A stretch of DNA of 64,000 nucleotides from a virus (lineage: Duplodnaviria; Heunggongvirae; Uroviricota; Caudoviricetes): the IMG/VR virus record IMGVR_UViG_3300037400_003880; one strand, 5' to 3'. Below the pieces are notes generated by a model that did not search any database, had not been told where the DNA came from, and saw nothing but the letters and a program-made list of their open reading frames with translations. Shown piece by piece: positions 48,933-63,905 of this stretch; within the stretch, counting starts at the first letter, position 1; each line of letters starts with the position of its first letter. A program made the position numbers and the translations under genes.

Positions 48933-48963
48933 CTTTCAAATTATTGAGAAAGAGGTGAGTCCA

Positions 48964-49194: not shown

Positions 49195-49195
49195 T

Positions 49196-49224: not shown

Positions 49225-49292
49225 TATTATAGTAAAGGCACAAACAGCAAGAATATCGTCCAACCTTAGAACGATACGTGTCTTGGCGAGAT

Positions 49293-49368: not shown

Positions 49369-49439
49369 TTCTCCTTCGCCAAGCGGTAAGGCAGCGGGCT
49401 CTAACCCCGTCAGCCAAGGTTCGAATCCTTGAGGAGAAG
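49369..49439 (+). tRNA. second amber suppressor tRNA (anticodon CTA), directly abutting the first; no CCA
   Basis: TTCTCCT TC GCCAAGCGGTAAGGC A GCGGG CTCTAAC CCCGT .. CAAGGTTCGAATCCTTG AGGAGAA G. The anticodon stem and loop are the same as copy 1. Confidence 0.75.
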
Positions 49440-49443
49440 TGTA

Positions 49444-49530
49444 AAGACGGTTCAGCAAAACACAAATGGTTAAAGAAAAATTCTGCAAAAATTTTTTGAA
49501 ACGGTTCAAATCCGTAAATTTCCCGTCTTG
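49444..49530 (+). ncRNA. Y RNA-like element with closing stem AAGACGG/CCGTCTT and internal T-arm-like ACGGTTCAAATCCGT
   Basis: Family 5' motif GACGGTTCAGCAAAAC. 7 bp terminal stem. Confidence 0.45.
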
Positions 49531-49535
49531 TTAAT

Positions 49536-49564
49536 TTGACTTTTTTCTTAGAGTATGATATAAT
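49536..49564 (+). promoter_or_regulatory. conserved promoter
   Basis: TTGACTTTTTT..ATGATATAAT. Confidence 0.55.
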
Positions 49565-49613
49565 AAATATGTACTTAAAAGTACGGAGCGAAATTCTCCT
49601 TAAACTACAAAAT

Positions 49614-49687
49614 GCGGCTATGGTGTAGTGGTAACATTTCTGCCTTCCAAGCAGACGTGGCGGGTTCGAGTCCCGTTAGCCGCTCCA
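49614..49687 (+). tRNA. tRNA-Gly (TCC), CCA encoded
   Basis: Acceptor GCGGCTA/TAGCCGC. Anticodon stem TCTGC/GCAGA with loop CTTCCAA. T-loop TTCGAGT. Confidence 0.75.
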
Positions 49688-49730
49688 GCTGTTGGTAAAC
49701 AGGTTGGCTCAATTGCCCGAAGCTTCCAAA

Positions 49731-49971
49731 AGACAGGTCAGCAATCCTTATAGAAATGTAATATTTAGAATAGGATTGAAAACTAACGGTATTAGTTTTG
49801 CTCGGGACGACTACTATGAAAGGAATGAGGTAAAACTCTCAACCGAGCTTATAGCGGCTGCCGGCTTTCGTGGCAGGAACCTTCGCCAGTCGTTACTACA
49901 CAGCGACATTAAAGAAGTGTGAGTATTGATGCAGCCTCCCTTTACGGGATTTAGATTTAGTACCTGTCTTG
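49731..49971 (+). ncRNA. Y RNA-like element, long form (about 241 nt)
   Basis: 5' AGACAGGTCAGCAATCC ... 3' TACCTGTCTTG. Highly structured interior. Confidence 0.4.
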
Positions 49972-50460
49972 AAAATTGAATGGTCGGCATTCGCTTGTGC
50001 CTTCCCCATAAGTTAAATTCAAGCCTCTACTGTGCTTATATCCCGTCTATTATGTTCGTCCGGAAGTGCGGCACATTAAATAACGCGGCGAAAAGAACAT
50101 TAGAACTCTCGTATATAGACTCAGGATAAGTGGAGCGAGACTAAATAAGTACCCGTTTGGCACGAGTTGTGCTAAATCCGAATCGTTCCTTATACTGCCA
50201 TATGAGGAGCGTCTGTGGCAGCAGTAATGAGACAGAAAGCTCTCAGAGTTGTACAGCTCAAAGCTTTCTCGCAATCCGCCGGTGTGAATGGGCGGTACCT
50301 TGTGAGTTAGTAGATGGACATAACTCTCCGTCTGGTTTGGCGTGAACGGACTGCTCAAAGGGTTCAACTCCCTTTCAATAGGATGTGCCTATTGCTACGG
50401 TTTAGGAGTTGGCACCAAGTACAAGCCTCCACGCGGCGGTGCTGGATTTGAACTAATTGT
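49972..50460 (+). ncRNA. unclassified structured non-coding region (about 490 nt) with T-loop-like AAGGGTTCAACTCCCTT and several GTCTG/CAGAC long-range complements
   Basis: No credible ORF; the track ORFs here overlap on both strands and are low-complexity. Lies between a Y-like element and a conserved promoter. No tmRNA, RNase P or group I core motifs were recognised. Confidence 0.3.
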
Positions 50461-50472
50461 ACAAAAGATTAT

Positions 50473-50501
50473 TTGACTTTTTATAAAAATTATGATATAA
50501 T
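50473..50501 (+). promoter_or_regulatory. conserved promoter
   Basis: TTGACTTTTTA..ATGATATAAT. Confidence 0.55.
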
Positions 50502-50522
50502 ATTTATAGAAAGTAAAGAGAA

Positions 50523-50598
50523 CGCGGGTTAGAGCAGTTGGTAGCTCGTCAGGTTCATTACCTGAAGGTCAGGGGTTCGAGTCCCTTACCCGCAACCA
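50523..50598 (+). tRNA. tRNA-Met/fMet-like (CAT), C1·A72 mismatch, CCA encoded
   Basis: Acceptor CGCGGGT/ACCCGCA. D-arm GAGC..GCTC. Anticodon stem TCAGG/CCTGA with loop TTCATTA. Confidence 0.6.
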
Positions 50599-50601
50599 AA
50601 T

Positions 50602-50677
50602 CGCCCCATCGTCTAAATGGTAAGGACGCGTCCCTTTCAAGGAGGTAATGCGAGTTCGATTCTCGCTGGGGTGACCA
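50602..50677 (+). tRNA. tRNA-Glu (TTC), CCA encoded
   Basis: Glu-type D-arm GTCTAAATGGTAAGGAC. Anticodon loop CTTTCAA. T-arm GCGAGTTCGATTCTCGC. Confidence 0.65.
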
Positions 50678-50685
50678 GCACGTTA

Positions 50686-50762
50686 CGACAAATCAGCAAA
50701 ACACTTCTTTCTTCAGAAATTAGAGAGATAAAGTCGTGCATTATCTTTAATAGTTTGTCGTG
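50686..50762 (+). ncRNA. Y RNA-like short element
   Basis: 5' CGACAAATCAGCAAAACAC ... 3' TTTGTCGTG. Confidence 0.4.
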
Positions 50763-50769
50763 AAAAATG

Positions 50770-50838
50770 GCGCGGTAGTGTAAAGGTAGCATAGTAGAGT
50801 CATTATCTACTGATTCAAGTTCGAGTCTTGACTGCGCA
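50770..50838 (+). tRNA. short tRNA with CAT anticodon (Met or Ile-lysidine type), reduced D-arm
   Basis: Acceptor GCGCGGT/ACTGCGC. Anticodon stem GTAGA/TCTAC with loop GTCATTA. T-arm CAAGTTCGAGTCTTG. Confidence 0.45.
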
Positions 50839-50842
50839 ATAA

Positions 50843-50966
50843 AAGATGTGTCAGCAAAACACTTAGTTATGGCATTTTAAGCCTCAGAATGTTGGTTCGA
50901 GTCCAACCCTCTCTTTGGAGAGGTAGCTTAATTGGCAGAGCGGAGAAAAACGAAAAACACATCTTG
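50843..50966 (+). ncRNA. Y RNA-like element with permuted tRNA-like module
   Basis: 9 bp closing stem AAGATGTGT/ACACATCTT. Interior: T-arm GTTGGTTCGAGTCCAAC, acceptor 3' strand CCTCTCT, TT, acceptor 5' strand GGAGAGG, TA, D-arm GCTTAATTGGCAGAGC. Confidence 0.5.
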
Positions 50967-51190
50967 TTTTAATGCCCGAGTACCCCAATCGGCAGAGGGA
51001 GCGGACTTTGATGTATTCTATCACAAAAGTGATACTACTGAAAAGTAGAGAGTGCCCCAAGAGAAATCTTGGAAGTAGAAGATGGCTAAAACGGCGAAGG
51101 CGAATACAGAACGCCGTGCAAGGATTTTAGGCAGACGGAAAGTTTTAGATGGATTTTTGCGTGATACCACTTATAAGTGAGGTGATAGAA

Positions 51191-51697
51191 ATGCAGAAGT
51201 ACACTAAAGAGTGGTTAGAAGAGCTTTGTGCAAACAGCTTTTCTTACGCAGAGGTTTTAAGAAAAGCCGGTCGTAAGCAAGGCGGTGGAACACAAGCGAC
51301 TCTAAAAAAGAAGATTGAAGAATTTAATATTGATGTCTCTCATTTTACGGGGCAAGGGTGGAATGGTCATTCTAATACCGTTGTTGATGTAAATAGAGAG
51401 AAATATTCAATAGAAGAAATCTTCATTAAGAACAGCCCAGTTACACAAAAAGTTATGAGAGGATATGTTGAAAGGCACAATCTTCTTGAGTACAAATGTG
51501 TTAATTGTGGTTGTGATGGAAATTGGCAAGGCGGCACAATCTCATTAGAGATTGACCATATTGATGGAGATAATTCTAATAATGAATTATCAAATCTCCG
51601 TTATTTATGTCCCAATTGTCACGCTCTTACTGAAACTTATCGAGGAAAAAACAAAGCCCTGAAATCTATGTGTAGAGACTGTACACCATCAGCCTAA
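51191..51697 (+). CDS. HNH homing endonuclease
   Basis: GGTGATAGAA ribosome-binding site, then ATG at 51191. HNH motif EIDHIDGDNSNNELSNLRYLCPNCHALTE. A 33-codon ORF upstream (51082-51183) lies in a different frame. Confidence 0.75.
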   Translation: MQKYTKEWLEELCANSFSYAEVLRKAGRKQGGGTQATLKKKIEEFNIDVSHFTGQGWNGHSNTVVDVNREKYSIEEIFIKNSPVTQKVMRGYVERHNLLEYKCVNCGCDGNWQGGTISLEIDHIDGDNSNNELSNLRYLCPNCHALTETYRGKNKALKSMCRDCTPSA

Positions 51698-51713
51698 ATC
51701 GAAAGATATGGTT

Positions 51714-51878
51714 AAGACACAGTCCAGACTACAACACAGCAATGTGGCTATGGTGACATAGTGTAGTACGAAAATCCGTATAGTGTGGGTTCGAATCCCA
51801 TTTCGGGCACCATTCTTATTGGGCTTATATGGCTTGGCTGTCACCATATGGCAGCGGCTCAATAGGAAACCAAGCCTT
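51714..51878 (+). ncRNA. Y RNA-like/tRNA-like structured element
   Basis: AAGACACAG...ACACAGCAATG motif. Internal stem CTATGGTGACA/TGTCACCATAG. T-arm-like GTGGGTTCGAATCCCAT. Confidence 0.35.
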
Positions 51879-51950
51879 AAGACGGTTCAGCAACTCTATA
51901 TAATAGAACTGTGTATTTGTGAACGCTGTTAATTTATATTGTCCGTCTTG
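51879..51950 (+). ncRNA. Y RNA-like short element
   Basis: 5' AAGACGGTTCAGCAACTC ... 3' GTCCGTCTTG. Confidence 0.45.
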
Positions 51951-51957
51951 TTTAAAT

Positions 51958-52032
51958 CGAGGACGTGGTGTAATTGGTAACACACCACATTTGGGATGTG
52001 GGGTAGCGGTTCGAGTCCGACGTCTTCGACCA
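51958..52032 (+). tRNA. tRNA-Pro (TGG), CCA encoded; weak T-stem
   Basis: Anticodon stem CCACA/TGTGG with loop TTTGGGA. T-loop TTCGAGT. Acceptor (C)GAGGAC/GTCTTCG with G·U pairs. Confidence 0.55.
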
Positions 52033-52129
52033 GCCCATAAGGGCAATCTTGATTTTTTCATCATTATTCATAATAATACCTCCAGAGTTATTATGAAAGT
52101 GTCGCATTATTGCGGAATGCGACACAAAT

Positions 52130-52206
52130 CGGGAATTAGCCCAATTGGCAGAGGCATACGTTTAAGGTGCGTATTAGTGAGGGTTCGAGTCCCTTGTTCC
52201 CGACCA
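52130..52206 (+). tRNA. class-I tRNA with Leu-type anticodon (loop TTTAAGG/TTAAGGT; TAA or AAG), A73, CCA encoded
   Basis: Acceptor CGGGAAT/GTTCCCG. D-arm GCCCAATTGGCAGAGGC. Anticodon stem (A)TACGT/GCGTA(T). T-arm GAGGGTTCGAGTCCCTT. Preceded by a 10 bp hairpin GTGTCGCATT..AATGCGACAC. Confidence 0.5.
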
Positions 52207-52393
52207 TCAGGTAAGCAGAGCTACCCGTCATTCGGTGACAAAGCTGCTCGGAGCGTTAACACGGATTTTGGATTAGTAAACTACTACCGGCGAGAGGTCG
52301 CTCCTCTCGATATGTAGCTTGCGGCAAACGCTCCGTTAATAAATAAGAAGGCGAAGTAACTAGTCCACCATTAAAAGAAAGGAGAGAATAGTC

Positions 52394-52897
52394 GTGGATA
52401 TGAAAAAGTTTCATCGTGGTAATGGAGACATTGTAACTCATGATGAAATGGTCAAGATTGCAGCTGATTATATCAGTGCTGATCCATCTCAGGAGTATGA
52501 AATTACTGTAGGGACTGATAGCCAAAACCATTCACAAACAAAAATGGTTGAAGTTATTGCTCTTCACAGAATTGGACACGGCGGCATCTTCTTCTATAGG
52601 GTTGATTATGTTCGTAAGATTAAGTCACTAAAGGAGAAGATTGTAGAAGAAACCTCGCGTTCTCTTGAGAATGCATCAGGGTTACTTGACGATGTTCAAC
52701 TTCAGTTGCTTGAAGAAGGCATTGATATTGATGACTTGAATATTCATTTCATTATTCATTGTGATATTGGTCATGAAGGAAAAACTCAGGCTTTAATTAA
52801 GGAAATTGTAAGTTGGGTTCATTCCGCAGGTTATGAATGTCAAATCAAGCCAGACAGCTATGCGGCTTCTGGTATTGCAAATAAGATTTCTAAATGA
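52394..52897 (+). CDS. hypothetical protein inside the tRNA array (H..GHGG / DIGHEG motifs; RNase-H-like fold?)
   Basis: AAAGGAGAG ribosome-binding site. Track ORF. Preceded by a structured leader with 7-8 bp helices. Confidence 0.5.
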   Translation: MDMKKFHRGNGDIVTHDEMVKIAADYISADPSQEYEITVGTDSQNHSQTKMVEVIALHRIGHGGIFFYRVDYVRKIKSLKEKIVEETSRSLENASGLLDDVQLQLLEEGIDIDDLNIHFIIHCDIGHEGKTQALIKEIVSWVHSAGYECQIKPDSYAASGIANKISK

Positions 52898-52916
52898 GGT
52901 GTTAATCACCTCAGAT

Positions 52917-52994
52917 GCCGTGGTAGTCCAACTGGCAGGAGACGTTTGCCTTAGGAGCAAAACAGTATGGGTTCGAATCCCTTCTACGGCACCA
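52917..52994 (+). tRNA. class-I tRNA with anticodon TAG (Leu CUA/CUG codons), A73, CCA encoded
   Basis: Acceptor GCCGTGG/CTACGGC. Anticodon stem TTTGC/GCAAA with loop CTTAGGA. T-loop TTCGAAT. Confidence 0.55.
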
Positions 52995-52996
52995 TT

Positions 52997-53090
52997 AAGA
53001 CAGCGCAGCAAATTTGAATAGCTCCATTTATATACACATAAAATGTATTTTAACAAAAGTGTCTCTGCTATAATGACACGAGCTGTCTTG
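52997..53090 (+). ncRNA. Y RNA-like element
   Basis: 5' AAGACAGCGCAGCAAATT ... 3' GAGCTGTCTTG. Confidence 0.4.
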
Positions 53091-53110
53091 TAATTTAATT
53101 CAAACTTATT

Positions 53111-53230
53111 AAGACTCTCCAGCAATCTGAGAAGGATTTCTTTCCAGTGTAGCCAAGTGGGTTAAGGCAGCGGCATCAAAGCCGTGATTCTCCGGTTCGA
53201 ATCCGGACTCCGGACAAAAAAAGAGTCTTG
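53111..53230 (+). ncRNA. Y RNA-like element enclosing a pseudo-tRNA (anticodon CAA, degenerate acceptor)
   Basis: 8 bp closing stem AAGACTCT/AGAGTCTT. The interior TCCAGTG TA GCCAAGTGGGTTAAGGC A GCGGC ATCAAAG GCCGT .. TCCGGTTCGAATCCGGA CTCCGGA has the Gln/Sup-like D-arm. Confidence 0.45.
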
Positions 53231-53236
53231 AGTTAT

Positions 53237-53309
53237 GGTGTAAGTGGTGAAATGGCTATCACGGCGGTTTGTGGCACCGCAGTTAAGAGTTCGATTCTCT
53301 TCTTATGCC
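53237..53309 (+). tRNA. tRNA-His (GTG) with encoded G-1:C73
   Basis: 8 bp acceptor GGTGTAAG/CTTATGCC. D-stem GTGA/TCAC. Anticodon stem GCGGT/ACCGC with loop TTGTGGC. T-arm AAGAGTTCGATTCTCTT. Confidence 0.7.
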
Positions 53310-53330
53310 CTTTATTTATCAATTAAAATA

Positions 53331-53359
53331 TTGACTTTTTGAGAAAAATATGGTATAAT
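53331..53359 (+). promoter_or_regulatory. conserved promoter
   Basis: TTGACTTTTTG..ATGGTATAAT. Confidence 0.55.
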
Positions 53360-53382
53360 ATTTATAGAAAGTGAGGGAAAAT

Positions 53383-53622
53383 ATGAAACAATTTATTATT
53401 TTAGAGGTATGCAATGAGGATTATTACATTTTCGATACTGTTAATGAAGCTATTCTCTATGCAATAGGGAAGGTTTGTAAATGGGTAAAAGATGAGGTGT
53501 TGGGAATGACAAAAGAAAGCGCAGGAGAGATTATCCTTGAAATGATGGATAGTAAGACTGACCATTCTTTTTATGTCGATGACGTTTTTTACTGTTATCC
53601 CGCACAATATATTAAGGAATAA
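53383..53622 (+). CDS. hypothetical protein
   Basis: AGTGAGGGAAAA ribosome-binding site, then ATG at 53383. Confidence 0.45.
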   Translation: MKQFIILEVCNEDYYIFDTVNEAILYAIGKVCKWVKDEVLGMTKESAGEIILEMMDSKTDHSFYVDDVFYCYPAQYIKE

Positions 53623-53639
53623 GTAAAGGAGAGAGTTAA

Positions 53640-53768
53640 ATGAGTAAAGAGCTGAGAATCCAGATGATGGAAAATCGAATTGTCTTGCTTATGTCTCGCG
53701 GCGAGACTATGAATGCAAGAATTGTAGCGAAGCTAAAGCGACAGCTTCGCAAGCTCAAGGGCGAGTAA
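53640..53768 (+). CDS. small basic protein (42 aa)
   Basis: AAGGAGAGAG ribosome-binding site. MSKELRIQMMENR... Below the track cutoff. Confidence 0.35.
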   Translation: MSKELRIQMMENRIVLLMSRGETMNARIVAKLKRQLRKLKGE

Positions 53769-53780
53769 TCGCCCACTTAT

Positions 53781-53854
53781 GGGGATGTGGTGCAAGTGGC
53801 AGACGCGGCTGTCTCAAAAACAGTTTTTTGTGGGTTCGAATCCCACCATCCCCA
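53781..53854 (+). tRNA. class-I tRNA with anticodon CAA (Leu UUG codon), A73
   Basis: Acceptor GGGGATG/CATCCCC. Anticodon stem GCTGT/ACAGT with loop CTCAAAA. T-arm GTGGGTTCGAATCCCAC. Confidence 0.55.
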
Positions 53855-53942
53855 CTGGCGCGCAGGTTTGATGCAATGCGACATATACAGAAATCCGTGT
53901 ACTATAGAGTATTCCTGCACAATCTATAGCGGTATTTAATTT

Positions 53943-54089
53943 AAGACACGCACAGCAAAGTTTTTTATAAATGGACAGTAAATCCGTTGGGGAAGTCCCT
54001 TCGTAGGTGCAAATCCTATCCTCGCCCACCAATATGGGTGAGTAGCCAAGTAGACAAAGGCGGCGGAACCATATGTAAAAAGTGTCTTG
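53943..54089 (+). ncRNA. Y RNA-like element with permuted tRNA-like module
   Basis: Closing stem AAGACAC/GTGTCTT. Interior: T-arm-like GTAGGTGCAAATCCTAT, acceptor 3' strand CCTCGCC plus CACCA, ATAT, acceptor 5' strand GGGTGAG, TA, D-arm GCCAAGTAGACAAAGGC. Confidence 0.45.
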
Positions 54090-54093
54090 AGAT

Positions 54094-54179
54094 GCGGAGA
54101 TGCCCGAGTGGTTGATGAGGACGGTCTGCAAAACCGTTGGCTTGCGCCCGCGTGGGTTCGAATCCCACTCTCCGCTCCA
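54094..54179 (+). tRNA. class-II (long variable arm) tRNA with anticodon GCA (Cys codons) and U73, CCA encoded
   Basis: Acceptor GCGGAGA/TCTCCGC. Tyr/Ser-like D-arm CCCGAGTGGTTGATGAGG. Anticodon stem ACGGT/ACCGT with loop CTGCAAA. 14 nt variable arm TGGCTTGCGCCCGC. T-arm GTGGGTTCGAATCCCAC. Confidence 0.55.
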
Positions 54180-54182
54180 AAT

Positions 54183-54256
54183 GCAGAATTAGTTTAATGG
54201 TAGAATTGGTGCTTCCCATGCACTTGACGCGGGTTCGATTCCCGTATTCTGCTCCA
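54183..54256 (+). tRNA. tRNA-Gly (CCC), CCA encoded
   Basis: Acceptor GCAGAAT/ATTCTGC. Anticodon loop TTCCCAT. T-arm GCGGGTTCGATTCCCGT. Confidence 0.7.
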
Positions 54257-54258
54257 GT

Positions 54259-54385
54259 AAGGTAGGTCAGCAAGAAGAACTAAAATTTTGTTCCAACTCT
54301 TATGTTGATGGTTCGAGTCCATCCTCACTCGCAAGTGTGAGTAGTTCAACTGGCAGAACAAAGGGTAAAAATTTAACCTATCTTG
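54259..54385 (+). ncRNA. Y RNA-like element with permuted tRNA-like module
   Basis: Closing stem GGTAGGT/ACCTATC with TCAGCAAG. Interior: T-arm GATGGTTCGAGTCCATC, acceptor 3' strand CTCACTC, loop GCAAGT, acceptor 5' strand GTGAGTA, D-arm GTTCAACTGGCAGAAC. Confidence 0.5.
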
Positions 54386-54417
54386 ATTATATCTGAGTTT
54401 AATTCTCTTCGGAGTAT

Positions 54418-54508
54418 CAAAGGCACAAAACAGCGGCGTACTTCTAAGTTCGATTCTTAACTCCTCCACCAATATGGGGGAGTAGCCCTTGGAGGGCTAT
54501 GTGTCTTG
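54418..54508 (+). ncRNA. Y RNA-like/tandem tRNA-like fragment element
   Basis: T-arm-like CTAAGTTCGATTCTTAA. CTCCTCC ACCA ATAT GGGGGAG TA GCCC. Ends ATGTGTCTTG. Confidence 0.35.
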
Positions 54509-54512
54509 ATTT

Positions 54513-54585
54513 GTCTCATTAGTTCAACAGGATAAAACAGTTTCCTCCTAAGAAACAGTTACAGGTTCGAGTCCTGTATGGGGCA
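54513..54585 (+). tRNA. tRNA-Arg (CCT)
   Basis: Acceptor GTCTCAT/ATGGGGC with two G·U pairs. Anticodon stem GTTTC/GAAAC with loop CTCCTAA. T-arm ACAGGTTCGAGTCCTGT. Confidence 0.55.
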
Positions 54586-54642
54586 CTGGGCGTTACTGCC
54601 CAAGTTATTTTCGACGTAAGTCTTGCGGCATGACTATAAACT

Positions 54643-54750
54643 GCCGTTGATGATGCGGAGGTGCGCAAGTGGTCATAAGCGCATAGCCTTGAAAGCTATT
54701 GTGTCAGCTTAGTATCTGACCCGTGGGTTCGAATCCCACTCTCCGCGCCA
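54643..54750 (+). tRNA. tRNA-Ser (TGA), class II, CCA encoded
   Basis: Acceptor GCGGAGG/TCTCCGC. Anticodon stem ATAGC/GCTAT with loop CTTGAAA. 21 nt variable arm. T-arm GTGGGTTCGAATCCCAC. Confidence 0.7.
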
Positions 54751-54894
54751 GACATGCTTTTGTAATTTCCATGTAATGAACAAGAAATTATTACCTTAGT
54801 GGTGGCTGAGCTATCTTTCAGTAAGTTTTAATAAATAATAAAATTAAATTTAAAATTTATTGAAGGGTAGCTTGGCTTAATACAGGTTATTTAT

Positions 54895-54923
54895 TTGACT
54901 TTCTTAGGAAAGTATGCTATAAT
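54895..54923 (+). promoter_or_regulatory. conserved promoter
   Basis: TTGACTTTCTT..ATGCTATAAT. Confidence 0.55.
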
Positions 54924-54989
54924 ATTATTATAGTGAGAAGATAAAACAGCAAACAAAAAGATTTATCTTGTGAAAAGGAGAAATGTGTA

Positions 54990-56459
54990 ATGAGTAATTT
55001 TGCAAACGCTTTTGGTAGAATGGCAGACATGACTATGACCGAGAATGGTGGACGCGCTTTCAGTACTACCGGTTCAGCTTTGCTTGACCTGTTCGCTAAT
55101 ATCGGTGGCATGAGAAATCGAGACACTTCTGATGTTGTTTCTGCATGGCAGGCAGCTCGGAAGGAAGATAAGGAGCTTGCGGATAATCTGATCCTCTATG
55201 CCCGTGATATTCGTAACACTGGTCTCGGTGAGCGTAAGATTGGTCGTGCCCTCCTGAAGGCTCTCGGTGATGCTGATCCTCAGAAGGTAATCCGTAACTT
55301 TGAAACCATTGTTGCGGCAGGTCGTTGGGATGACTTGTTCATCTTTGTGGGTAACCCTGCAATTGAGAACAAGATGTGGGATTATGTTGAAGAGCAGTTC
55401 CGTGCTGATGTAAAGGGTGTAAAGCTTAACCAGCCTATCTCTTTGCTCGGTAAGTGGATGCCTTCCATTAACACCAGCTCTCAGGAGACTCGTAAGCTCG
55501 CACGTCGTGCCTGCGCGCACTTGGGTCTGACTGAGCGTACTTATCGTAAGAGCCTTAGCGCGCTTCGTAAGCATATCAACATTGTTGAGCGTCTTATGAG
55601 CGCCGGCGAGTGGGATAAGATTGACTTCGAGTCTGTACCTTCTGTAGCTATGTCTCGTTATATCAATACTTATAACAAGCGTTGTCAGGAGCGTTTTGCT
55701 GAATACAAGGCTTCCCTCGTAAAGGGTGAAGCTAAGGTTAATGCAGCAACTTTGTATCCTTATGACATTGTTATGAAGGCATTGAATAGCGGATACTACG
55801 GGAAGATGACTCTTGATGCTGTTGACGAAGCACAATGGAAGGCTCTGCCTAACTATGTGTCTGGTGAGAATGAGGTCGTTGTAATGGCGGACGTGTCTGG
55901 TTCTATGAGCTGTGACATGAATCGTCCTATGGCAACTTCTATCGGTCTTGCCACCTATTTCGCACAGAGGAACAAGGGTGCATATCACAATATGTATCTT
56001 ACCTTTACCTCTCAGCCTGCTTTCATTCATCTCAAGGATGAGTGGAGTTTGGCAGACTGCCTTAACTATGTGAAGAGTCATGGTGTAGGTTATAGCACTA
56101 ATCTGGATGCGGCTTTCGCTGCAATCTATGAGGTTGCTGTTCGCACCAATGAAGCTCCAAAGGCACTGGTTGTAATCTCTGACATGGAGATTGATAGCTG
56201 GTACTCTGGTAACTTCTGCGACTCTATCGCAAGTAAGTGGGAGAGAAAGTATGCAGCCGTTGGCTTGAAGGCTCCTAAGCTTATCCTTTGGAACGTAGAA
56301 TCTCGTGGTGGACGTGTGCTCGCACAGCAGTCTGATCGTGTAGGTTTCGTTTCTGGATATGGCGTTGGTCCTTTCGCAAACTTGACCTCTCTTATCGACA
56401 AGAGTGCTTACGAGGCAATGAAGGAAATTCTTTCTAAGCCTGCATTCCAGTGGAAGTAA
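54990..56459 (+). CDS. Ro60/TROVE-like protein with C-terminal vWA domain (Rsr-like, DUF2828-type; tentative)
   Basis: AAAAGGAGAAA ribosome-binding site. An N-terminal alpha-helical region of about 290 aa is followed by a vWA MIDAS motif VVVMADVSGSMS and LVVISDMEID. Lies directly downstream of the Y RNA-like/tRNA array. Confidence 0.55.
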   Translation: MSNFANAFGRMADMTMTENGGRAFSTTGSALLDLFANIGGMRNRDTSDVVSAWQAARKEDKELADNLILYARDIRNTGLGERKIGRALLKALGDADPQKVIRNFETIVAAGRWDDLFIFVGNPAIENKMWDYVEEQFRADVKGVKLNQPISLLGKWMPSINTSSQETRKLARRACAHLGLTERTYRKSLSALRKHINIVERLMSAGEWDKIDFESVPSVAMSRYINTYNKRCQERFAEYKASLVKGEAKVNAATLYPYDIVMKALNSGYYGKMTLDAVDEAQWKALPNYVSGENEVVVMADVSGSMSCDMNRPMATSIGLATYFAQRNKGAYHNMYLTFTSQPAFIHLKDEWSLADCLNYVKSHGVGYSTNLDAAFAAIYEVAVRTNEAPKALVVISDMEIDSWYSGNFCDSIASKWERKYAAVGLKAPKLILWNVESRGGRVLAQQSDRVGFVSGYGVGPFANLTSLIDKSAYEAMKEILSKPAFQWK

Positions 56460-56462
56460 TGT

Positions 56463-56486
56463 AAGGGCGGCTCGTCCGCCTTTATA
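56463..56486 (+). terminator. terminator-like hairpin GGGCGGCTCGTCCGCCTTT
   Basis: GGCGG/CCGCC stem followed by TTTAT. Confidence 0.5.
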
Positions 56487-56492
56487 TAAATA

Positions 56493-56722
56493 TGGCGGTT
56501 CAGCAACTTACTTTATGAGAAATTGGAGTTAAATTTATTTTAACAGGCTTTTGGCTGCCGAAGTCAAATGTGACCCATCGAGGACATGGGCAAAAATCCT
56601 AAAAGGTGCCGTCATGATATACGATTCTTCCAGCAATAGTGATGCTATGTTTAGGAAAATTTTACAATTATGCCTTGATTGAAGAGCAGAATCGTGCGGC
56701 ATTATAGTTTCTATAGTGCCGC
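56493..56722 (+). ncRNA. Y RNA-like element, long and divergent
   Basis: 5' TGGCGGTTCAGCAACTT ... 3' GTGCCGCTTTA. No ORF. Confidence 0.3.
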
Positions 56723-56731
56723 TTTATTTAT

Positions 56732-56760
56732 TTGACTTTTTTATAAAAATATGATATAAT
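56732..56760 (+). promoter_or_regulatory. conserved promoter
   Basis: TTGACTTTTTT..ATGATATAAT. Confidence 0.55.
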
Positions 56761-56787
56761 ATAAGTGTAGAAAGGAGAGATGGACTT

Positions 56788-56907
56788 ATGCATGAACTGC
56801 TTTCTTTACTTATGTTGTTAGTTCTTGTGCCGGCGGCAATAATCTTTATCGAGATTATTATTGAGCGTATTGAAGATGCTAAAGAAGGGGAGGATGAAGA
56901 TATGTGA
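56788..56907 (+). CDS. small membrane peptide (39 aa)
   Basis: AAAGGAGAG ribosome-binding site, then ATG at 56788. Hydrophobic with an acidic tail. Confidence 0.3.
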   Translation: MHELLSLLMLLVLVPAAIIFIEIIIERIEDAKEGEDEDM

Positions 56908-58586
56908 GTGTCGCTATTAGAATAACATTATCAAATGGAGAAGAAGCGTGGCTAAGAACAGAAGAAGTTGAAGTGGAAGAAATCCCTGACGCATTTGGTC
57001 AGCCAATGTCTTTAGATGTTCAATTTTTAGCTTAGACAGGTTCTTGGATAGAAAATCTTCTTAAAATCAATGAGTCGGTAAAAGTTTCTTAGCTTTTGTT
57101 AATAGTTGATAATGATAAGAAGATACAGATTGATTTTAGACGCTATGCATTAGGAGTTATGATGTGTCATTCAAGCAATTTGAATGGTACATCTGATATA
57201 TCCATTATTGGAGCTGGCGTTGCAACTGAATTTAAGGAAGGAGAGATTGTCTGTGTGAGTAAGAAGTTTTCTACAAAAATTGTAAGTGTAATATTCCCAG
57301 ATGAAAGGGGCAGATACACAGGGAAAACCTATAACTATTTTCTGCATGAGGAGCTACCACTCCCGAATCTTTCTGACAGGATTCAAATTAAATCAATCAA
57401 AGGTTTTGGGGATGTTGTGCCGTAGAAGCCCAGTTATAATGACAGAAGTGTTCTTGTAGTTGGCGCCTTTAATGTTACAGCAGATACTGTAGAAGAGTAT
57501 GCTGATAAAATTTTAACCTATGGCGATTGTCTGAAAACAATCTATAGCTATGAAATAACAAGTTCCTTAGTTTCAGATGTTGTACATCAGGAAAAGGAAG
57601 CTACTCTTTCTATTCAAGTAGACGATCATGAGAAACTTTGGCAAGACCTCAATAATGTAGTGGCTAATGCGCCTTATGGTTTCAGATTATCTGATATTAA
57701 TAATGAGCAAGTAAAGCTTGACTGTGAAGTTCTCCGCCCATTCTCTCTTTATACAAAGAGTGATTCGGGTGACTGGGTTCTTCGAGCTGAGCTTAAGCCA
57801 TATGGAAAGGAAAACGAAGTGAGAAACAAATATGTTGATGAATGGGATAGCCTTGTAAGTGCAGGAGCAATTCCGACTTACAACACAGTTGAAGAAATGG
57901 ATATTCCGAAGGAAGAAATGGTATATTTTGAGAAGAAAAAGGAGAGAAAATCAATGAAGAATATTTTTGGTAACATTATGAAGAACGTAAAGTTTGGTCA
58001 GCTCAATACTGACAAGGTCGCATATTCTATGCAGGGTATGGCTTTCAAGTCCAGTGACGGTGATTATCTCGTATACAAGAAGGATCAGCCGGCGGTTAAC
58101 GTAAATGAGTTTGTCATTGAGATGCCGCTGTTTGTGATGCCGGTCCCGCTGAAGGACCTTTAGGTTGGTGATATTATTTGCAGGGGTGAAGATTTTGTTC
58201 TTGTAGATAGTATCGGTGAGACTTATATTACCGCAATCAACACTGACAAGAGTGAGATTGTAACAATTGTTCCACAGGTAAATATGTTCGGCTTCTCCTT
58301 CTATAGTAAGGTAGTAGCTCCGACTAATCTGTTCGGCGAGGCAACTCAGGATAATCCGTTTGGTAATATTCTGCCGCTGCTAATGATGGATAATGAAGAT
58401 AACGATTCTTCTGCATTTGGTATGATGATGCTCATGAGCCAGATGAATGGCGGTAAGGGTATGAATATGGATTTCACTAAAATGGCTCCGTTTTTTCTGC
58501 TTGGCAATCAAAATGGAAAGGATGACACCTTCAAGATGATGGCTCTTATGTCTATGATGAATAGCGGCTCTGAAAAGAAGGAGTAA
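56904..58586 (+). CDS. hypothetical protein (about 560 aa, 5 in-frame TAG)
   Basis: GGGGAGG ribosome-binding site, then GTG at 56904. One frame joins track ORFs 57096-57425, 57660-58163 and 58284-58586 across TAGs. Met-rich C-terminus. Confidence 0.5.
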
Positions 58587-58591
58587 TTTTA

Positions 58592-58936
58592 ATGTTAGGT
58601 AACGTTCTTTTCTATGGAGGTATCGGGATCGCCATTATTGGCGGTCTCGGTATCATACGTTTTGATGGCTCTATCAAACGAGTTATTATTTGCGGAATTA
58701 TGATTATAGCAGGTCTTGCCTGCCTTGCAGTTGGGCAAGGAAAGCGTAATACAGCTCCTGTAAAGTATGAAATTGTTGAAGTGCAGTCTTTGAATAATAA
58801 CGATACGCAATATCGAGTTACACTAAAGGCTGGCGGAAATTCAACAATTTTGTACGTTGACGATAAGAAAGTAAAGGATTTTGTGGAGGGCGGCACAATT
58901 GAGCTTACAGCTCCACAGTTAAAGGAGTATCAGTAA
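58592..58936 (+). CDS. membrane protein
   Basis: Track ORF with two transmembrane helices. Confidence 0.5.
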   Translation: MLGNVLFYGGIGIAIIGGLGIIRFDGSIKRVIICGIMIIAGLACLAVGQGKRNTAPVKYEIVEVQSLNNNDTQYRVTLKAGGNSTILYVDDKKVKDFVEGGTIELTAPQLKEYQ

Positions 58937-59229
58937 TGACAGCAAACGAAGAAATGGGACTTGGAATTTTTGCAATTGTCTTGGTAATAATCCTTATAGG
59001 AGTAGTAGTTGGACTTATTGCTTATCAGAATTCGACTGGAGAGGATATGGTTGATTCCCATTTGAAAGATTATTCCTCTTTTACAGTCAATGGGGCTGAC
59101 TTTAAGACCGAGGATGTAGAAGGATATGACTATTTACCAAACGGTCACGAGAATGACGCAATCGTTTTCAATATGGAAAATGGCGATGAAGTTCACGTCC
59201 TTATTGATATGATTACTTGGCACGAATAA
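58936..59229 (+). CDS. membrane protein
   Basis: Track ORF with one transmembrane helix. Confidence 0.5.
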   Translation: MTANEEMGLGIFAIVLVIILIGVVVGLIAYQNSTGEDMVDSHLKDYSSFTVNGADFKTEDVEGYDYLPNGHENDAIVFNMENGDEVHVLIDMITWHE

Positions 59230-59235
59230 TATGTT

Positions 59236-59264
59236 AAAGCCAGCTCACAAGGGCTGGCTTTTTA
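59236..59264 (+). terminator. rho-independent terminator AAAGCCAGC..GCTGGCTTTTT
   Basis: 9 bp stem followed by a T-run, immediately before a conserved promoter. Confidence 0.7.
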
Positions 59265-59265
59265 T

Positions 59266-59294
59266 TTGACTTTTTCCAAAAAATATGTTATAAT
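59266..59294 (+). promoter_or_regulatory. conserved promoter
   Basis: TTGACTTTTTC..ATGTTATAAT. Confidence 0.55.
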
Positions 59295-59315
59295 TATATT
59301 AAAGAGGTGATAGAA

Positions 59316-59717
59316 ATGGGTACATTAAAGAAGGAAGTCTGCAATGCAAGAATTGTTGATACTCAATTGGGGATTGAAGACCACGGTTTGCTTACGTTTA
59401 ATCTAAGATGTGAGTTCAAAGATTCCTATGGAAAAGGAACCTGCTCATTTGGTGGCTGTAGCTTTGGTAGTAGGTGTCTGAATTATGATGAAACTTATGA
59501 GTATATCAACGTTAAATTTACTTCAGAGTTGCTTATGAGAGTTCTCACTATTGTTGGAGTAAGGAATTGGGAAGACATCAAAGGAAAGCTTATTAGAATA
59601 AGAACAAATGGTCGTACAGGTTGTGCCGGCGGGATTGAAGCCATTGGAAATATTATCGAAGATGAATGGTTTTGTATCGAAGATTTTTACAGAGAGAAGG
59701 AAAATGAGGATAAATGA
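59316..59717 (+). CDS. hypothetical Cys-rich protein
   Basis: AAAGAGGTGA ribosome-binding site, then ATG at 59316. Confidence 0.5.
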   Translation: MGTLKKEVCNARIVDTQLGIEDHGLLTFNLRCEFKDSYGKGTCSFGGCSFGSRCLNYDETYEYINVKFTSELLMRVLTIVGVRNWEDIKGKLIRIRTNGRTGCAGGIEAIGNIIEDEWFCIEDFYREKENEDK

Positions 59718-59923
59718 GCATTTCATCAGTAACAATTTATTTATGTCCTAATTGCGGCAGTCTTCAGGCAAGCAATACTCTTGTCCCTTGGCATGGCACG
59801 GGCTATATACCTTATGACCAAGCCAAAATATGTCCTAAATGTCATGTTGTTCTTACATTAGAAACTTGGAACAGGAACGTTTTTGGAGTGCCTAAGTCAG
59901 ATGAATTGAAAAAATATATTTGA
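59714..59923 (+). CDS. small zinc-ribbon protein
   Basis: CPNCG...CPKCH. Confidence 0.45.
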   Translation: MSISSVTIYLCPNCGSLQASNTLVPWHGTGYIPYDQAKICPKCHVVLTLETWNRNVFGVPKSDELKKYI

Positions 59924-59929
59924 CTTTTT

Positions 59930-59948
59930 TGAAAAATAATGGTATAAT
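59930..59948 (+). promoter_or_regulatory. conserved promoter
   Basis: TTGACTTTTTT..ATGGTATAAT. Confidence 0.55.
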
Positions 59949-59978
59949 ATATATAGAAAGTTTGAGAGGAGAATGTGA

Positions 59979-60914
59979 ATGAAGCATTATGTAGATATTG
60001 AGCGTTTTAAGGTAAAGTACGACGAGTGCATGCGCGCCGGTGACGAGATTGTCGTACAAGAGAAGATTGATGGAGCCAATGCATCTTTTACTTACGATCC
60101 CGCACAGGATAAGGTTCTGGCTTTTTCTCGTAAGAATGAGCTGAATGAGGCAAATAATCTCCGTGGTTTCTGGGATTGGACTCAGCGTCTTGACAAGAAG
60201 GGTGTCGCTCATATGACTCAGAATGGTCGCTATGTAATTTTCGGCGAGTGGCTTGTAAAGCATACTGTTCGTTATCCTGAGCATGAGTATAATCATTTCT
60301 GGATGTTCGATGTATGGGATACGCAGGACGAGAAGTGGCTTCACTATGATGATGTTCGTGCAATTCATGCGGGACTTTTGAGTGTAGCCCAGCTCACGCA
60401 GGAGGTTATTAACTTCGTCCCTGTATTCTATGACGGTCCGTTCATTTCTTGGGATCACCTTTACCAGATGGTTGGACGTACTGACGTAAATGCGGAGCCT
60501 TGCGGCGAGGGCATCGTAATTAAGAACCAGAACACTATTGACATTCCGGAGTGGCGCCTGCCTACCTATGTCAAGATTGTATCGGAGAAGTTCTCTGAGG
60601 TTCACGTTGGTCATGCTAAGAAGCTCATTGATCCTGCTGTTCTTGCAGCTCGTGAGGCAGAGCGTCAGATGGTTGCGACTGTAGTTACCGAGCGCCGTGT
60701 AGCTAAAATATTGGAAAAGTTTGTAGATAATGGTATACTTCCAGAAGACTGGGACGAAAAAAATATGAAGGATGTTGCTAAGAATCTCCCTAAAGCAGTT
60801 TATGAGGATTGTATAAAAGAAGAACCAGATATTGTAAAAGCGTGTGAAGACTTTGGAAAAATATGTGGTAAGATTTCTATGGATTATGTTCGTCAATTTC
60901 TTTCTGCTCGATAA
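59979..60914 (+). CDS. ATP-dependent RNA ligase (Rnl2-like nucleotidyltransferase)
   Basis: Motif I EKIDGAN (adenylated lysine), motif IV EGIVIKNQ, motif V KIVSEKF. Size about 311 aa. GAGAGGAGAA ribosome-binding site. Confidence 0.7.
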   Translation: MKHYVDIERFKVKYDECMRAGDEIVVQEKIDGANASFTYDPAQDKVLAFSRKNELNEANNLRGFWDWTQRLDKKGVAHMTQNGRYVIFGEWLVKHTVRYPEHEYNHFWMFDVWDTQDEKWLHYDDVRAIHAGLLSVAQLTQEVINFVPVFYDGPFISWDHLYQMVGRTDVNAEPCGEGIVIKNQNTIDIPEWRLPTYVKIVSEKFSEVHVGHAKKLIDPAVLAAREAERQMVATVVTERRVAKILEKFVDNGILPEDWDEKNMKDVAKNLPKAVYEDCIKEEPDIVKACEDFGKICGKISMDYVRQFLSAR

Positions 60915-60969
60915 CGAAAATTGTTGATGAACTTTCTTAGTTATCTACTTATAGATAGGAGGTGATAAG

Positions 60970-61884
60970 ATGGGAAAGTTCATTGATTTAACTGGATAGA
61001 AATTTGGACGATTAACTGTCTTAGAAAAAGATATGGAAAGAAGTAAAAATACAACTTATTGGAAATGTATCTGTGAATGTGGAAAAGAATTTTCCACAAG
61101 AGGAACTTCATTAAGAAATGGAAAAACAACTTCTTGTGGTTGTGCGCGAATCGAAAAAGTCAAAGAATCATTAACGATAGATTTAACAGGACAAGTTTTT
61201 GAAAATTTAACTGTAATTAAACAAGTTCAAACAGAAGAAAAAGGTGCTCATTGGTTATGTTCTTGTAAATGTGGAAATACAATTATTGTTAATGGAAGTG
61301 ACCTGCGTGCTGGCGTAGTAAAATCTTGTGGATGCTTATCAGGAAAATTGCAAAGTGCGTCTTTATGCAAAAAATTAGACGGACTAACTTTTGGAAAATG
61401 GCGCGTTATAGAAAGAGACCTAAAATAGATAGGAGACGGCGCAAGATGGATTTGCCAATGTCAATGTGGACAAATAAGAAGTGTTGCAGCAAGCAGTTTA
61501 ATTTCTGGAAGAAGCTTGTCTTGTGGTTGTTTACATTCCGCAGGGGAGTATAAAATTTCATGTCTATTAAATAAAAACAATATTCACTATGAAAAAGAAT
61601 ATATCTTTCCAGATTTGGTCGGAAATAAGTTGCCTTTAAGATTTGATTTCGCAATAAAAAATGACAATGATGAAGTCATCTGCTTAGTTGAATTTTAGGG
61701 CGAACAGCATTATAAATATTCTGATTACTTTGAAAAAAAACAAAGCTTCGAAGATCGCCAGAGATATGACCAGATGAAGCGAGATTATTGTCAAAGAAAA
61801 AATCTTTTGTTAATTGAAGTCCCATATTGGGATTATGAGAAATTAAATGATGATTATGTAAAGGAGTGGCTGAAGTCTCGATGA
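60970..61884 (+). CDS. Cys-repeat plus DUF559-like nuclease paralog 3 (304 aa, 3 TAG)
   Basis: AGGAGGTGA ribosome-binding site. LTGQKFGRLTV..W.C.C.CG..CGC repeats. LRFDFAI..VEF-TAG-GEQHY..RQRYDQMKRDYC..LLIEVPY. Confidence 0.55.
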
Positions 61885-62160: not shown

Positions 62161-62676
62161 ATGAGAAACTTACTTGTTGTCGTAGATATGCAGAATGATT
62201 TCATTACCGGCGCCCTGGCTAATCCAGAGGGGCAGAAGATTGTCGGGAAGATTGCGGATTTTATTTATGATTTTCCCGGAGGAGTTGTATATACCGCAGA
62301 CACCCATTATGATAATTATTTGGAAACTCAAGAAGGAAAGCGGCTTCCTATCTCTCATTGTATTGAAGGGTCTGAAGGATGGAGAATTGTTCCAGAAATT
62401 GAAAGAGCCCTTGAAGCTCGAGATGCAGCCCAGTTTATTAAGCATTCTTTCGGCAGCAGAGAACTCGCAAAATTTGTTCAGTATCATTTTTATGATGAAG
62501 TATATTTTGTCGGGGTTTGTACAGATATTTGCGTAATTTCTAATGCAATGCTTTGCAAGGCGTTTGCTCCTGAAATAAGGATTGTTGTGCTGAAGGATAT
62601 GTGTGCTGGCGTAACACCAGAAAGCCATGAGACTGCACTTAAGGCGATGCAGGCTTGTCAGATTGATGTTGAGTAA
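62161..62676 (+). CDS. pncA: nicotinamidase (isochorismatase-family cysteine hydrolase)
   Basis: VVVDMQNDF, catalytic Cys in VGVCTDICV, Lys/Asp triad context. Confidence 0.75.
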   Translation: MRNLLVVVDMQNDFITGALANPEGQKIVGKIADFIYDFPGGVVYTADTHYDNYLETQEGKRLPISHCIEGSEGWRIVPEIERALEARDAAQFIKHSFGSRELAKFVQYHFYDEVYFVGVCTDICVISNAMLCKAFAPEIRIVVLKDMCAGVTPESHETALKAMQACQIDVE

Positions 62677-62687: not shown

Positions 62688-63905
62688 ATGAGATTTGAAC
62701 CAATTATTAAGAGCTTGCTTGAAAACGATATGTATAAATTTAGCATGGGGCAGGCTATTTATCACCAGTTTCCTGAGTATATGACGACATGGACGTTTAA
62801 ATGTCGTAATGAAGGAGTTAAGTTTACTTATGAGATGGTCAAGGAAATCAAGGAGCAGATTAAAGCTTATTGCAGTCTCCGTTTTACGGAGGATGAGCTT
62901 GATTACCTCGATGAGATTAAGTGGATCAAGGGTTCGTATGTAAACTTCCTGCGTATCTGGCAGCCGAGATATGAGGACTTCGAGATTTCTGGCGAGGGGG
63001 CATACGGGCTGAGTATTGAAACCAAGGGAACGTGGCTTAATACTTCGATGTATGAGATTCCCGTGCTCGCAATTGTAAATGAAGTTTACTTCCGAATGCG
63101 CTATGATTACGACCATCTTTATCAGGTATTTAAGGAGAAGTTCCAGCAGAAGTCTAAAAAGCTTGTAAGTGGAGAATATCATATGGGGAGATTCTCTGAG
63201 TTTGGTCTTAGACGTAGGCTGTCTGGTGAAGCACAGGATTACGCAGTAAGAAATCTTCGTAATTTTTTGCTCAATAGTCTTGATCGAGCGAGATTCGTAG
63301 GAACGTCGAACGTTTATCTGGCAAAGAAATACGGACTTACTCCTGTCGGCACGATGGCGCATGAGTGGATTATGTGCGTAGGGCAAGGTAATCATCGACA
63401 CAATCCAGCTTATTCTAACTATTACGCTCTCAATGCATGGATTAAGGAATATGGCGTACTTAATGGTATCGCATTGACTGATACTATTACTACTGATGTT
63501 TTCCTGCGAGACTTTGACCTTGAGAAGGCGACCTTGTTTAGCGGAGTTCGTCATGATTCCGGCGACCCTCGTATTTGGGGTGAAAAGATTATTGACCATT
63601 ATTGCGAACTTGGTATTGATCCGCAGTCTAAGACGCTTCTGTTTTCGGATAGCCTTGACTTTGAGCGAGCTACATCTCTTTCCAACTACTTTTATGACAG
63701 AATCAATGTAGCTTTCGGTATCGGTACCTATCTATCTAATGATACCGATGTGCCGGCGCTCAATATCGTGATGAAACCAACATTTTGCAATGGACAGGAT
63801 GTGGCAAAGCTGTCTGATGCAGAGGGTAAGTGTATGTGTAAAAATGAAGCATATGTGAAGTACCTTAAGCGATCCATTGGATGGCGTATTGACCACGAGA
63901 TTTAA
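62688..63905 (+). CDS. pncB: nicotinate phosphoribosyltransferase
   Basis: Size about 405 aa. GTSN and TMAHEW motifs typical of NAPRTase. Adjacent to pncA. Confidence 0.8.
   Translation: MRFEPIIKSLLENDMYKFSMGQAIYHQFPEYMTTWTFKCRNEGVKFTYEMVKEIKEQIKAYCSLRFTEDELDYLDEIKWIKGSYVNFLRIWQPRYEDFEISGEGAYGLSIETKGTWLNTSMYEIPVLAIVNEVYFRMRYDYDHLYQVFKEKFQQKSKKLVSGEYHMGRFSEFGLRRRLSGEAQDYAVRNLRNFLLNSLDRARFVGTSNVYLAKKYGLTPVGTMAHEWIMCVGQGNHRHNPAYSNYYALNAWIKEYGVLNGIALTDTITTDVFLRDFDLEKATLFSGVRHDSGDPRIWGEKIIDHYCELGIDPQSKTLLFSDSLDFERATSLSNYFYDRINVAFGIGTYLSNDTDVPALNIVMKPTFCNGQDVAKLSDAEGKCMCKNEAYVKYLKRSIGWRIDHEI

Follow-up and report, generated by a model that had tools for sequence, protein, structure and literature searches.

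The 64,000-nucleotide stretch of DNA analysed here (the window), from a virus of the class Caudoviricetes (IMG/VR record IMGVR_UViG_3300037400_003880), carries on its plus strand a gene for an adenosine triphosphate (ATP)-dependent RNA ligase resembling T4 Rnl2 (59979-60914), a gene for a bifunctional protein that joins a polynucleotide kinase to an HD phosphohydrolase (Pnk-HD, 42601-43503), and an array of transfer RNA (tRNA) genes (48116-54750). A first-pass annotation had named these three features and proposed that they make up a tRNA repair pathway directed against host anticodon nucleases. We found that the identities of all three hold up, the Pfam and PHROG matches of both proteins and the tRNA calls being far beyond chance, and that the pairing of the two enzymes on tRNA stands in part.

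The ligase gene is an intact open reading frame (ORF) of 311 amino acids running from ATG to TAA, with a nucleotidyltransferase domain at about residues 1-215 and an all-helical C-terminal domain at about residues 219-310. Pfam RNA_ligase (PF09414) matched the protein with an E-value of 3.2e-27 (96 bits, cut-off 27), the 'RNA ligase' family phrog_548 matched it over its full length (E 8e-53), and the KIDGAN and EGIVIK motifs on which the first-pass annotation had relied are present as EKIDGAN (containing K29) and GEGIVIK (E177-K182). Searching the PDB with the single ligase sequence returned noise and no meaningful match; a family profile made from 28 homologues placed T4 Rnl2 (2hvq) first, with an E-value of 2.6e-5, and Naegleria Rnl5 second, the match to 2hvq including a further aligned stretch over motif V and the beginning of the C-terminal domain. 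The NCBIfam Rnl2 equivalog model TIGR02307 matched residues 16-301 with only 38.8 bits, far under its cut-off of 197.15, and we therefore refer to the protein as Rnl2-like rather than as an Rnl2 equivalog. A PADLOC scan returned no defence-system match for the ligase.

An AlphaFold (AF2) model of the ligase, with a predicted local distance difference test score (pLDDT) of 88.6, comprised a beta-rich N-terminal domain and nothing but helices in residues 219-310. Foldseek ranked full-length T4 Rnl2 (2hvr) first for this model, followed by Rnl5, Rnl3 and Rnl1. These comparisons bear on the alternative that the gene encodes the DNA ligase of the phage, as the GenBank annotations of some homologues would have it: a few Staphylococcus and Bacillus phage records label them 'DNA ligase' or 'Lig'. 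We consider this very improbable, given that no OB domain was found in the AF2 model or in its full-length Foldseek alignment to 2hvr and that the C-terminal domain is of the Rnl2 type, with equivalents of T4 R266 and D292; moreover, DNA ligases ranked below RNA ligases in the fold search, with the exception of the African swine fever virus ligase at ranks 18-23, and Tsamsa-like phages have a separate ATP-dependent DNA ligase beside this gene. The possibility that the protein would align best to OB-containing DNA ligases, which the first-pass annotation had itself raised, is thus not what the alignments returned.

Active-site residues were mapped with hhalign and with an alignment of 12 sequences that included T4 Rnl2 and six cultured phages. 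The adenylylated lysine of the motif I signature KxDGxN is K29, equivalent to T4 K35, and is invariant both among the 28 homologues and among the 12 aligned sequences. The residues of the next four motifs are invariant or almost invariant in the alignments: R51 corresponds to T4 R55 (motif Ia), E90 to E99 (motif III), F110-D111 to F119-D120 (motif IIIa), and E177 and K182 to E204 and K209 (motif IV). In the C-terminal domain T237, R240, D277 and E281 are invariant across the 12 sequences, T4 Rnl2 included; R240 and D277 are the counterparts of T4 R266 and D292, both of which are essential in T4 Rnl2. The T4-type K-x-K of motif V (K225, K227) is absent from the window ligase, in which the first lysine is kept as K199 and the position of the second, which is not conserved, is taken by V201. 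An engineered change at this same motif V position, K227Q, is in commercial use. The ligase is Rnl2-like in architecture and active site, yet a member of a distant clade.

The Pnk-HD gene, likewise on the plus strand and running from ATG to TAA, encodes 300 amino acids, with a polynucleotide 5'-kinase at its N-terminus (about residues 1-155) and an HD phosphohydrolase at its C-terminus (about residues 170-300). Pfam AAA_33 matched residues 8-140 (E 6e-18) and Pfam HD residues 187-276 (E 3e-6; 27.9 bits, cut-off 22); with PF09414, the profiles of all three families that the first-pass annotation had named for the two proteins thus found their match. In a search of the PDB with the Pnk-HD family profile, the kinase domain of Clostridium thermocellum Pnkp (CthPnkp) was the best hit, with an E-value of 8.6e-24, followed by L-seryl-tRNA(Sec) kinase, Pnkp1, T4 Pnk and mammalian PNKP (the last three at about 1e-9), whereas adenylate kinases appeared only at E-values above 0.01. 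The AlphaFold model of the protein is very confident (pLDDT 94.6, predicted template modelling score 0.92), and its top Foldseek match was again CthPnk, with a target-normalised template modelling score of 0.72-0.76, a root mean square deviation of 2.6 Å and 26% identity. Among 25-27 homologues the P-loop residues G11, G16 and K17, the S36-S37-D38-x-x-R41 motif, and R121 and R123 are invariant, and the SSD..R motif aligns with 'ISSDFCRG' of CthPnk. The kinase is a Pnkp-type polynucleotide kinase rather than a deoxynucleoside monophosphate kinase, the identity that the first-pass annotation had held in reserve.

The HD domain contains a complete set of metal ligands (H178, H210-D211, H236, H264 and D296), invariant in the same 25-27 homologues. 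A profile of this domain by itself matched (E 3e-5) a class II tRNA nucleotidyltransferase-family protein of Aquifex in its HD region (3wfo-3wfs). We found no DxDxT acylphosphatase (HAD) 3' healing domain in the protein, the C-terminal domain being HD. Both halves matched the phage HD-Pnk family phrog_6931 in swapped order, and the arrangement in the window protein, Pnk then HD, is the opposite of that in characterised HD-Pnk. IMG/VR has 391 stretches that encode a relative of Pnk-HD, and a large database has 1608 such proteins.

PADLOC Cas3 HD models also match the HD domain (E 2.4e-9), and with this in mind we considered that Pnk-HD might not be an RNA end healer at all. Its HD domain could instead be a nuclease or a degrader of signalling nucleotides, and its kinase could act on a tRNA-linked or small-molecule substrate, a picture with which the resemblance of the kinase to L-seryl-tRNA(Sec) kinase would agree, as would the nearby genes for a DarG-like macro domain and for salvage of nicotinamide adenine dinucleotide (NAD), which are typical of other counter-defence functions. 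Polynucleotide kinases were nevertheless the best matches by both profile and fold, the S-S-D-x-x-R motif is conserved, both domains match the phage HD-Pnk family, and the kinase-HD gene repeatedly adjoins RNA ligase genes; we therefore regard a role outside RNA end healing as distinctly unlikely.

Both genes are preceded by the same class of promoter-like motif, TTGACT-N17-TATAAT, mostly with an extended -10 TG (TTGACTTTTT...TGnTATAAT). The window contains 27 such sites against 1.07 expected, all but one of them (26) on the plus strand, and they stand before the tRNA clusters and many short genes. The site at 59920-59948 (+), with an extended -10 TG, ends 31 nucleotides upstream of the ligase ATG, and a TTGACT-N17-TATACT site at 42537-42565 (+) ends 36 nucleotides upstream of the Pnk-HD ATG. 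Other copies lie upstream of genes for a metallophosphoesterase (41027), a DUF2828 protein and a PncA-like protein and at seven positions in the tRNA array; examples are found at 48052, 48281, 48512, 49196, 49536, 50473, 53331, 54895, 56732, 59266, 59920, 62102 and 63947. The distribution of the motif suggests a single expression class that would depend on a host sigma factor.

The tRNA array lies between the two enzyme genes and, as the first-pass annotation had said, is large, with 19 tRNAs called by ARAGORN and 20 by Rfam; it includes Lys(UUU), Glu(UUC), Gln(UUG) and two amber-suppressor tRNA(CUA) genes. One ARAGORN call is a tRNA-like gene with an abnormal two-base anticodon, and one Rfam call is an extra, weak tRNA of 35.9 bits (53143-53215 and 48194-48268, respectively). 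Searching the window with Rfam returned tRNAs only, and no Y-RNA-like partner.

The amber-suppressor genes are two tandem tRNAs with a CUA anticodon (49293-49368 and 49369-49439). Plus-strand ORFs of at least 150 amino acids total 9,664 amino acids under the standard code and 15,974 if TAG is read through (the pattern concerns window positions 1-35000 and 44238-61884), and individual ORFs, such as 6508-9615, have as many as 17 TAGs in frame. Gene calls on an identical Logan contig likewise span TAG stops. The phage appears, from this coding pattern, to read TAG as a sense codon. The genes for the ligase, Pnk-HD, the DUF2828 protein, PncA and nicotinate phosphoribosyltransferase (NAPRTase) contain no TAG.

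We then compared gene neighbourhoods in IMG/VR relatives and in cultured phages. All five IMG/VR contigs with the closest ligases carry the kinase-HD gene as well, about 15-17 kb away, which matches the spacing in the window, and four of these five also carry an Rnl1-like gene. In other relatives a distance of 2-4 kb separates the ligase and kinase-HD genes, and Thg1 and an Rnl1-like ligase are found in the same few kilobases. Overall, no fewer than 21 of the 80 IMG/VR ligase loci have kinase-HD on the same contig. Seen from the other side, the neighbours within 10 kb of 80 kinase-HD loci were DUF2828 (34 loci), Rnl1-like ligase (14), PncA (13), Thg1 (10) and Rnl2-like ligase (8), the commonest of them, DUF2828, often lying about 3.6 kb upstream. 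In the cultured phages Tsamsa and Skywalker there is overlap between kinase-HD and an Rnl1-like gene, with the Rnl2-like gene about 3 kb further on. Within the 64-kb window, tblastn found neither an Rnl1-like gene (four Rnl1-like queries) nor a Thg1 gene. Cultured phage records with the ligase number 336 (Staphylococcus 185, Bacillus 73, Listeria 56, Lactobacillus 13, others 9), and those with kinase-HD number only 49, among them 38 from Bacillus and none from Staphylococcus, Listeria or Lactobacillus. The common promoter class and the co-retention of both genes in the closest relatives make a functional link between the ligase and Pnk-HD plausible.

Taking these observations together, we think it probable that the window, from a large phage that reads TAG as sense, codes for an RNA repair kit of the T4 'heal and seal' type. 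In T4, Pnkp and Rnl1 heal 2',3'>P and 5'-OH ends and then seal them (PMC3400036). From the protein identities, folds, catalytic residues, promoter sites and co-occurrence observed here, we infer comparable biochemical activities, an RNA substrate (tRNA or other) and a role in counter-defence. By homology, the substrates of Pnk-HD would be the RNA ends that metal-independent ribotoxins produce: the kinase would phosphorylate the 5'-OH, with D38 as general base together with R41, R121 and R123, and the HD domain would use its metal ligands (H178, H210-D211, H236, H264 and D296) in opening and removing the 2',3'-cyclic phosphate or 3'-phosphate. The Rnl2-like ligase would then join the resulting 3'-OH and 5'-PO4 ends via a lysyl-AMP (adenosine monophosphate) on K29. 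Because T4 Rnl2 prefers duplex nicks, this ligase more likely mends breaks in a base-paired RNA context than breaks in loops. Joint and early expression is probable, because the same host-type promoter precedes the ligase, Pnk-HD, the tRNA array, the metallophosphoesterase and the DUF2828 gene. An Rnl1-type ligase, as a further partner, is probably encoded just beyond the window, since such a gene is present in four of the five nearest relative contigs. That the substrate would be tRNA in particular is suggested by analogy with T4 and by the tRNA array, and the proposed defence against anticodon nucleases would likewise follow T4 precedent.

Several observations weigh against this heal-and-seal reading. 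The first concerns motif V. All 28 close homologues have K-x-V, as do the ligases of cultured phages of Bacillus, Staphylococcus, Listeria and Lactobacillus; the same form was seen in each of 120 database hits and at every one of the 78 IMG/VR loci in which the motif is readable, K-x-K being found in none. The Rnl1-like ligases of related phages retain K-x-K. In T4 Rnl2, K227 makes contact with the phosphate of AMP, and both adenylylation of the enzyme and reversal of step 2 are impaired by the K227Q change (PMC3149579), so that the clade has an invariant valine where T4 Rnl2 needs a lysine for its own adenylylation. The second concerns substrate: T4 Rnl1 has an inherent specificity for tRNA broken in its anticodon loop, and Rnl2-type ligases prefer duplex nicks to such breaks (PMC3884662). 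The third is genetic. The ligase and Pnk-HD genes are 17 kb apart, each with a separate promoter; an Rnl1-like gene adjoins kinase-HD more often than an Rnl2-like gene does (14 versus 8 of 80 loci), usually abutting it; and at least 262 of the 336 ligase-bearing cultured records (at least 78%) lack kinase-HD. Finally, judging from its likeness to the Cas3 HD nuclease, the HD domain may have roles other than that of an RNA 3'-end phosphoesterase. The first-pass proposal that the ligase and Pnk-HD act as a tRNA repair pair therefore survives as to the common promoter class and the retention of both genes in the closest relatives; the abutting Rnl1-like genes, the many records without kinase-HD and the valine at the K227 position tell against it.

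Some of these points would be accounted for if the two enzymes were not partners. Pnk-HD would then pair with an Rnl1-type ligase outside the window in true anticodon-loop repair, as in T4, and the Rnl2-like ligase would have a separate task on nicked RNA duplexes or RNA:DNA hybrids, its substrates being possibly guide-directed cuts, structured RNAs or replication intermediates. The Rnl1-like genes that abut or overlap kinase-HD in relatives and cultured phages, their presence on all but one of the five closest relative contigs, and the abundance of the ligase clade in phages of Staphylococcus, Listeria and Lactobacillus, which lack kinase-HD, are all consistent with such a division of labour, as is the preference for duplex nicks of T4 Rnl2, an enzyme whose in vivo role is unknown (PMC3884662). 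However, tblastn of the window found no Rnl1-like gene, the Rnl2-like and kinase-HD genes have a common promoter class and co-occur in this lineage, and any ligase of duplex nicks would still require healed ends; we hold this to be a serious but less likely alternative to the heal-and-seal kit. More speculatively, and in our view improbably, the phrog_548 clade, being without K227, may run step 1 differently (with another residue, metal or cofactor) or depend on pre-activated ends, in which case it would form with the reversed-order Pnk-HD a biochemically distinct heal-and-seal system, one on which a TAG-recoded phage could have to rely for the integrity of its own suppressor tRNAs.

Two further genes of the same promoter class may contribute to the proposed repair kit. 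A calcineurin-type metallophosphoesterase is encoded at 41027-41593 (+), with matches to PF00149/PF12850 and to the 'phosphoesterase' family phrog_547 (E 6e-47). The gene has a promoter motif to itself at 40958-40986, and in 11 of 80 IMG/VR loci such a gene is no more than 10 kb from the ligase. CthPnkp and lambda phosphatase are active as cyclic phosphodiesterases (PMC2190708), and the window protein is a second candidate enzyme for healing 2',3' or 3' ends, putatively a member of the repair system. Directly after the tRNA array lies a gene for a DUF2828/DUF7788 protein (54990-56459, +; Pfam, and the 'RNA-binding protein' family phrog_850, E 2e-117), a candidate accessory RNA-binding component that might conceivably be Ro/TROVE-like. 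A PDB sequence search with the DUF2828 protein gave no match, and a search of the literature for phage DUF2828 members found nothing.

The rest of the surroundings can be described briefly. A zinc-ribbon ORF just 5' of the ligase (59714-59923) was considered as a conserved small partner and rejected, since the small ORFs that precede the ligase in relatives share no homology with this one. On the 3' side of the ligase is a pair of genes resembling those for NAD+ salvage, an isochorismatase-family PncA-like nicotinamidase (62161-62676) and a nicotinate phosphoribosyltransferase (62688-63905); in Tsamsa-like Bacillus phages, genes for phosphoribosyl pyrophosphate synthase and NAMPT lie about 2 kb from the Rnl2-like ligase. 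In several related contigs a gene for a BrxL-like (Lon-like) ATPase is situated a few kilobases downstream of the ligase/Rnl1 cluster, with a Thg1-like gene nearby (L001, 12991-14400; L006, 17654-19072; L017; L149). A macro-domain protein is encoded at 39905-40396, 2 kb upstream of Pnk-HD; it resembles the DarG antitoxin macrodomain (PADLOC E 6e-16; Pfam Macro weak) and may serve counter-defence by reversing ADP-ribosylation. The same early-type block contains a second calcineurin-type phosphoesterase (30126-30905), an SPFH/Band 7 protein (31530-32474) and an NT5C-type 5'-nucleotidase (38039-38611); a Band 7 gene is found near the ligase in one relative contig (L003) too. A 525-amino-acid ORF at 24823-26400 has Hint and LAGLIDADG domains and is an intein or homing-endonuclease element.

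The value of the window lies in its pointing to two widespread enzyme types, an Rnl2-like clade with a natural K-to-V substitution in motif V and a Pnk-HD healer. Characterising either enzyme could give new reagents for RNA ligation, and could clarify the in vivo role of Rnl2-type ligases, which is unknown even for T4.

The window ligase and T4 Rnl2 (gp24.1) have in common an adenylyltransferase N-terminal domain and an all-helical C-terminal domain, T4 Rnl2 being the best PDB match by profile and fold, and motifs I, Ia, III, IIIa and IV, the first lysine of motif V and the equivalents of R266 and D292 are kept. The window ligase differs in having only about 20% identity to T4 Rnl2 and a valine for K227 throughout its clade, and in belonging to a separate phrog_548 clade found in Herelleviridae, Tsamsavirus and gut or rumen phages. 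With the T4 Pnkp and Rnl1 system the window shares a healer in which a kinase is followed by a phosphoesterase, an ATP-dependent RNA ligase, a phage with tRNA genes and the same predicted logic; unlike in T4, the 3' healing domain is HD and not a DxDxT acylphosphatase, and the ligase is Rnl2-like and not Rnl1-like.

Among cellular systems, CthPnkp has the closest solved structure to the window kinase, with the SSD..R and DATN motifs in common. It differs in combining a metallophosphoesterase and its own ligase domain in one chain and in working with Hen1; such partners were not seen in the window. In Runella slithyformis HD-Pnk (Munir and Shuman 2017, as cited in PMC6097658), the HD domain comes first and Pnk second. 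There, an HD phosphoesterase and a P-loop 5'-OH polynucleotide kinase are united in one polypeptide, as in the window, and are genetically associated with ATP-dependent ligase genes; the window protein, in contrast, is viral, has the order Pnk-HD, and is 17 kb from the nearest ligase gene in the window.

The nearest counterparts are in Tsamsa/Thrax-type Bacillus phages, whose module comprises an Rnl1-like ligase (gp174), a kinase-HD (gp175) and an Rnl2-like ligase (gp182). Full-length homologues of both window proteins, at 34-38% identity, are annotated there as 'polynucleotide kinase' and 'RNA ligase', and NAD salvage genes are close by in both the module and the window. The genes of the module are within about 5 kb, with kinase-HD overlapping the Rnl1-like gene, whereas the window has a 17-kb spacing, no Rnl1-like gene in view and TAG as a sense codon. 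The Thrax-phage homologues have been read as a counter to PrrC-type anticodon nucleases (PMC9703825), and surveys of large phages list as counter-defence equipment several RNA ligase families, polynucleotide kinases, HD/calcineurin phosphatases, TROVE-like RNA-binding proteins, Thg1, tRNA arrays and NAD salvage (PMC7824862). An anti-anticodon-nuclease reading is thus already published for the Thrax homologues, and the window is a further example of a known kit; it adds little conceptually, because phage RNA repair is already a known counter-measure to host ribotoxins. What novelty remains resides in the universal K-to-V substitution in motif V of the ligase clade, together with the uncharacterised Pnk-then-HD architecture of the healer.

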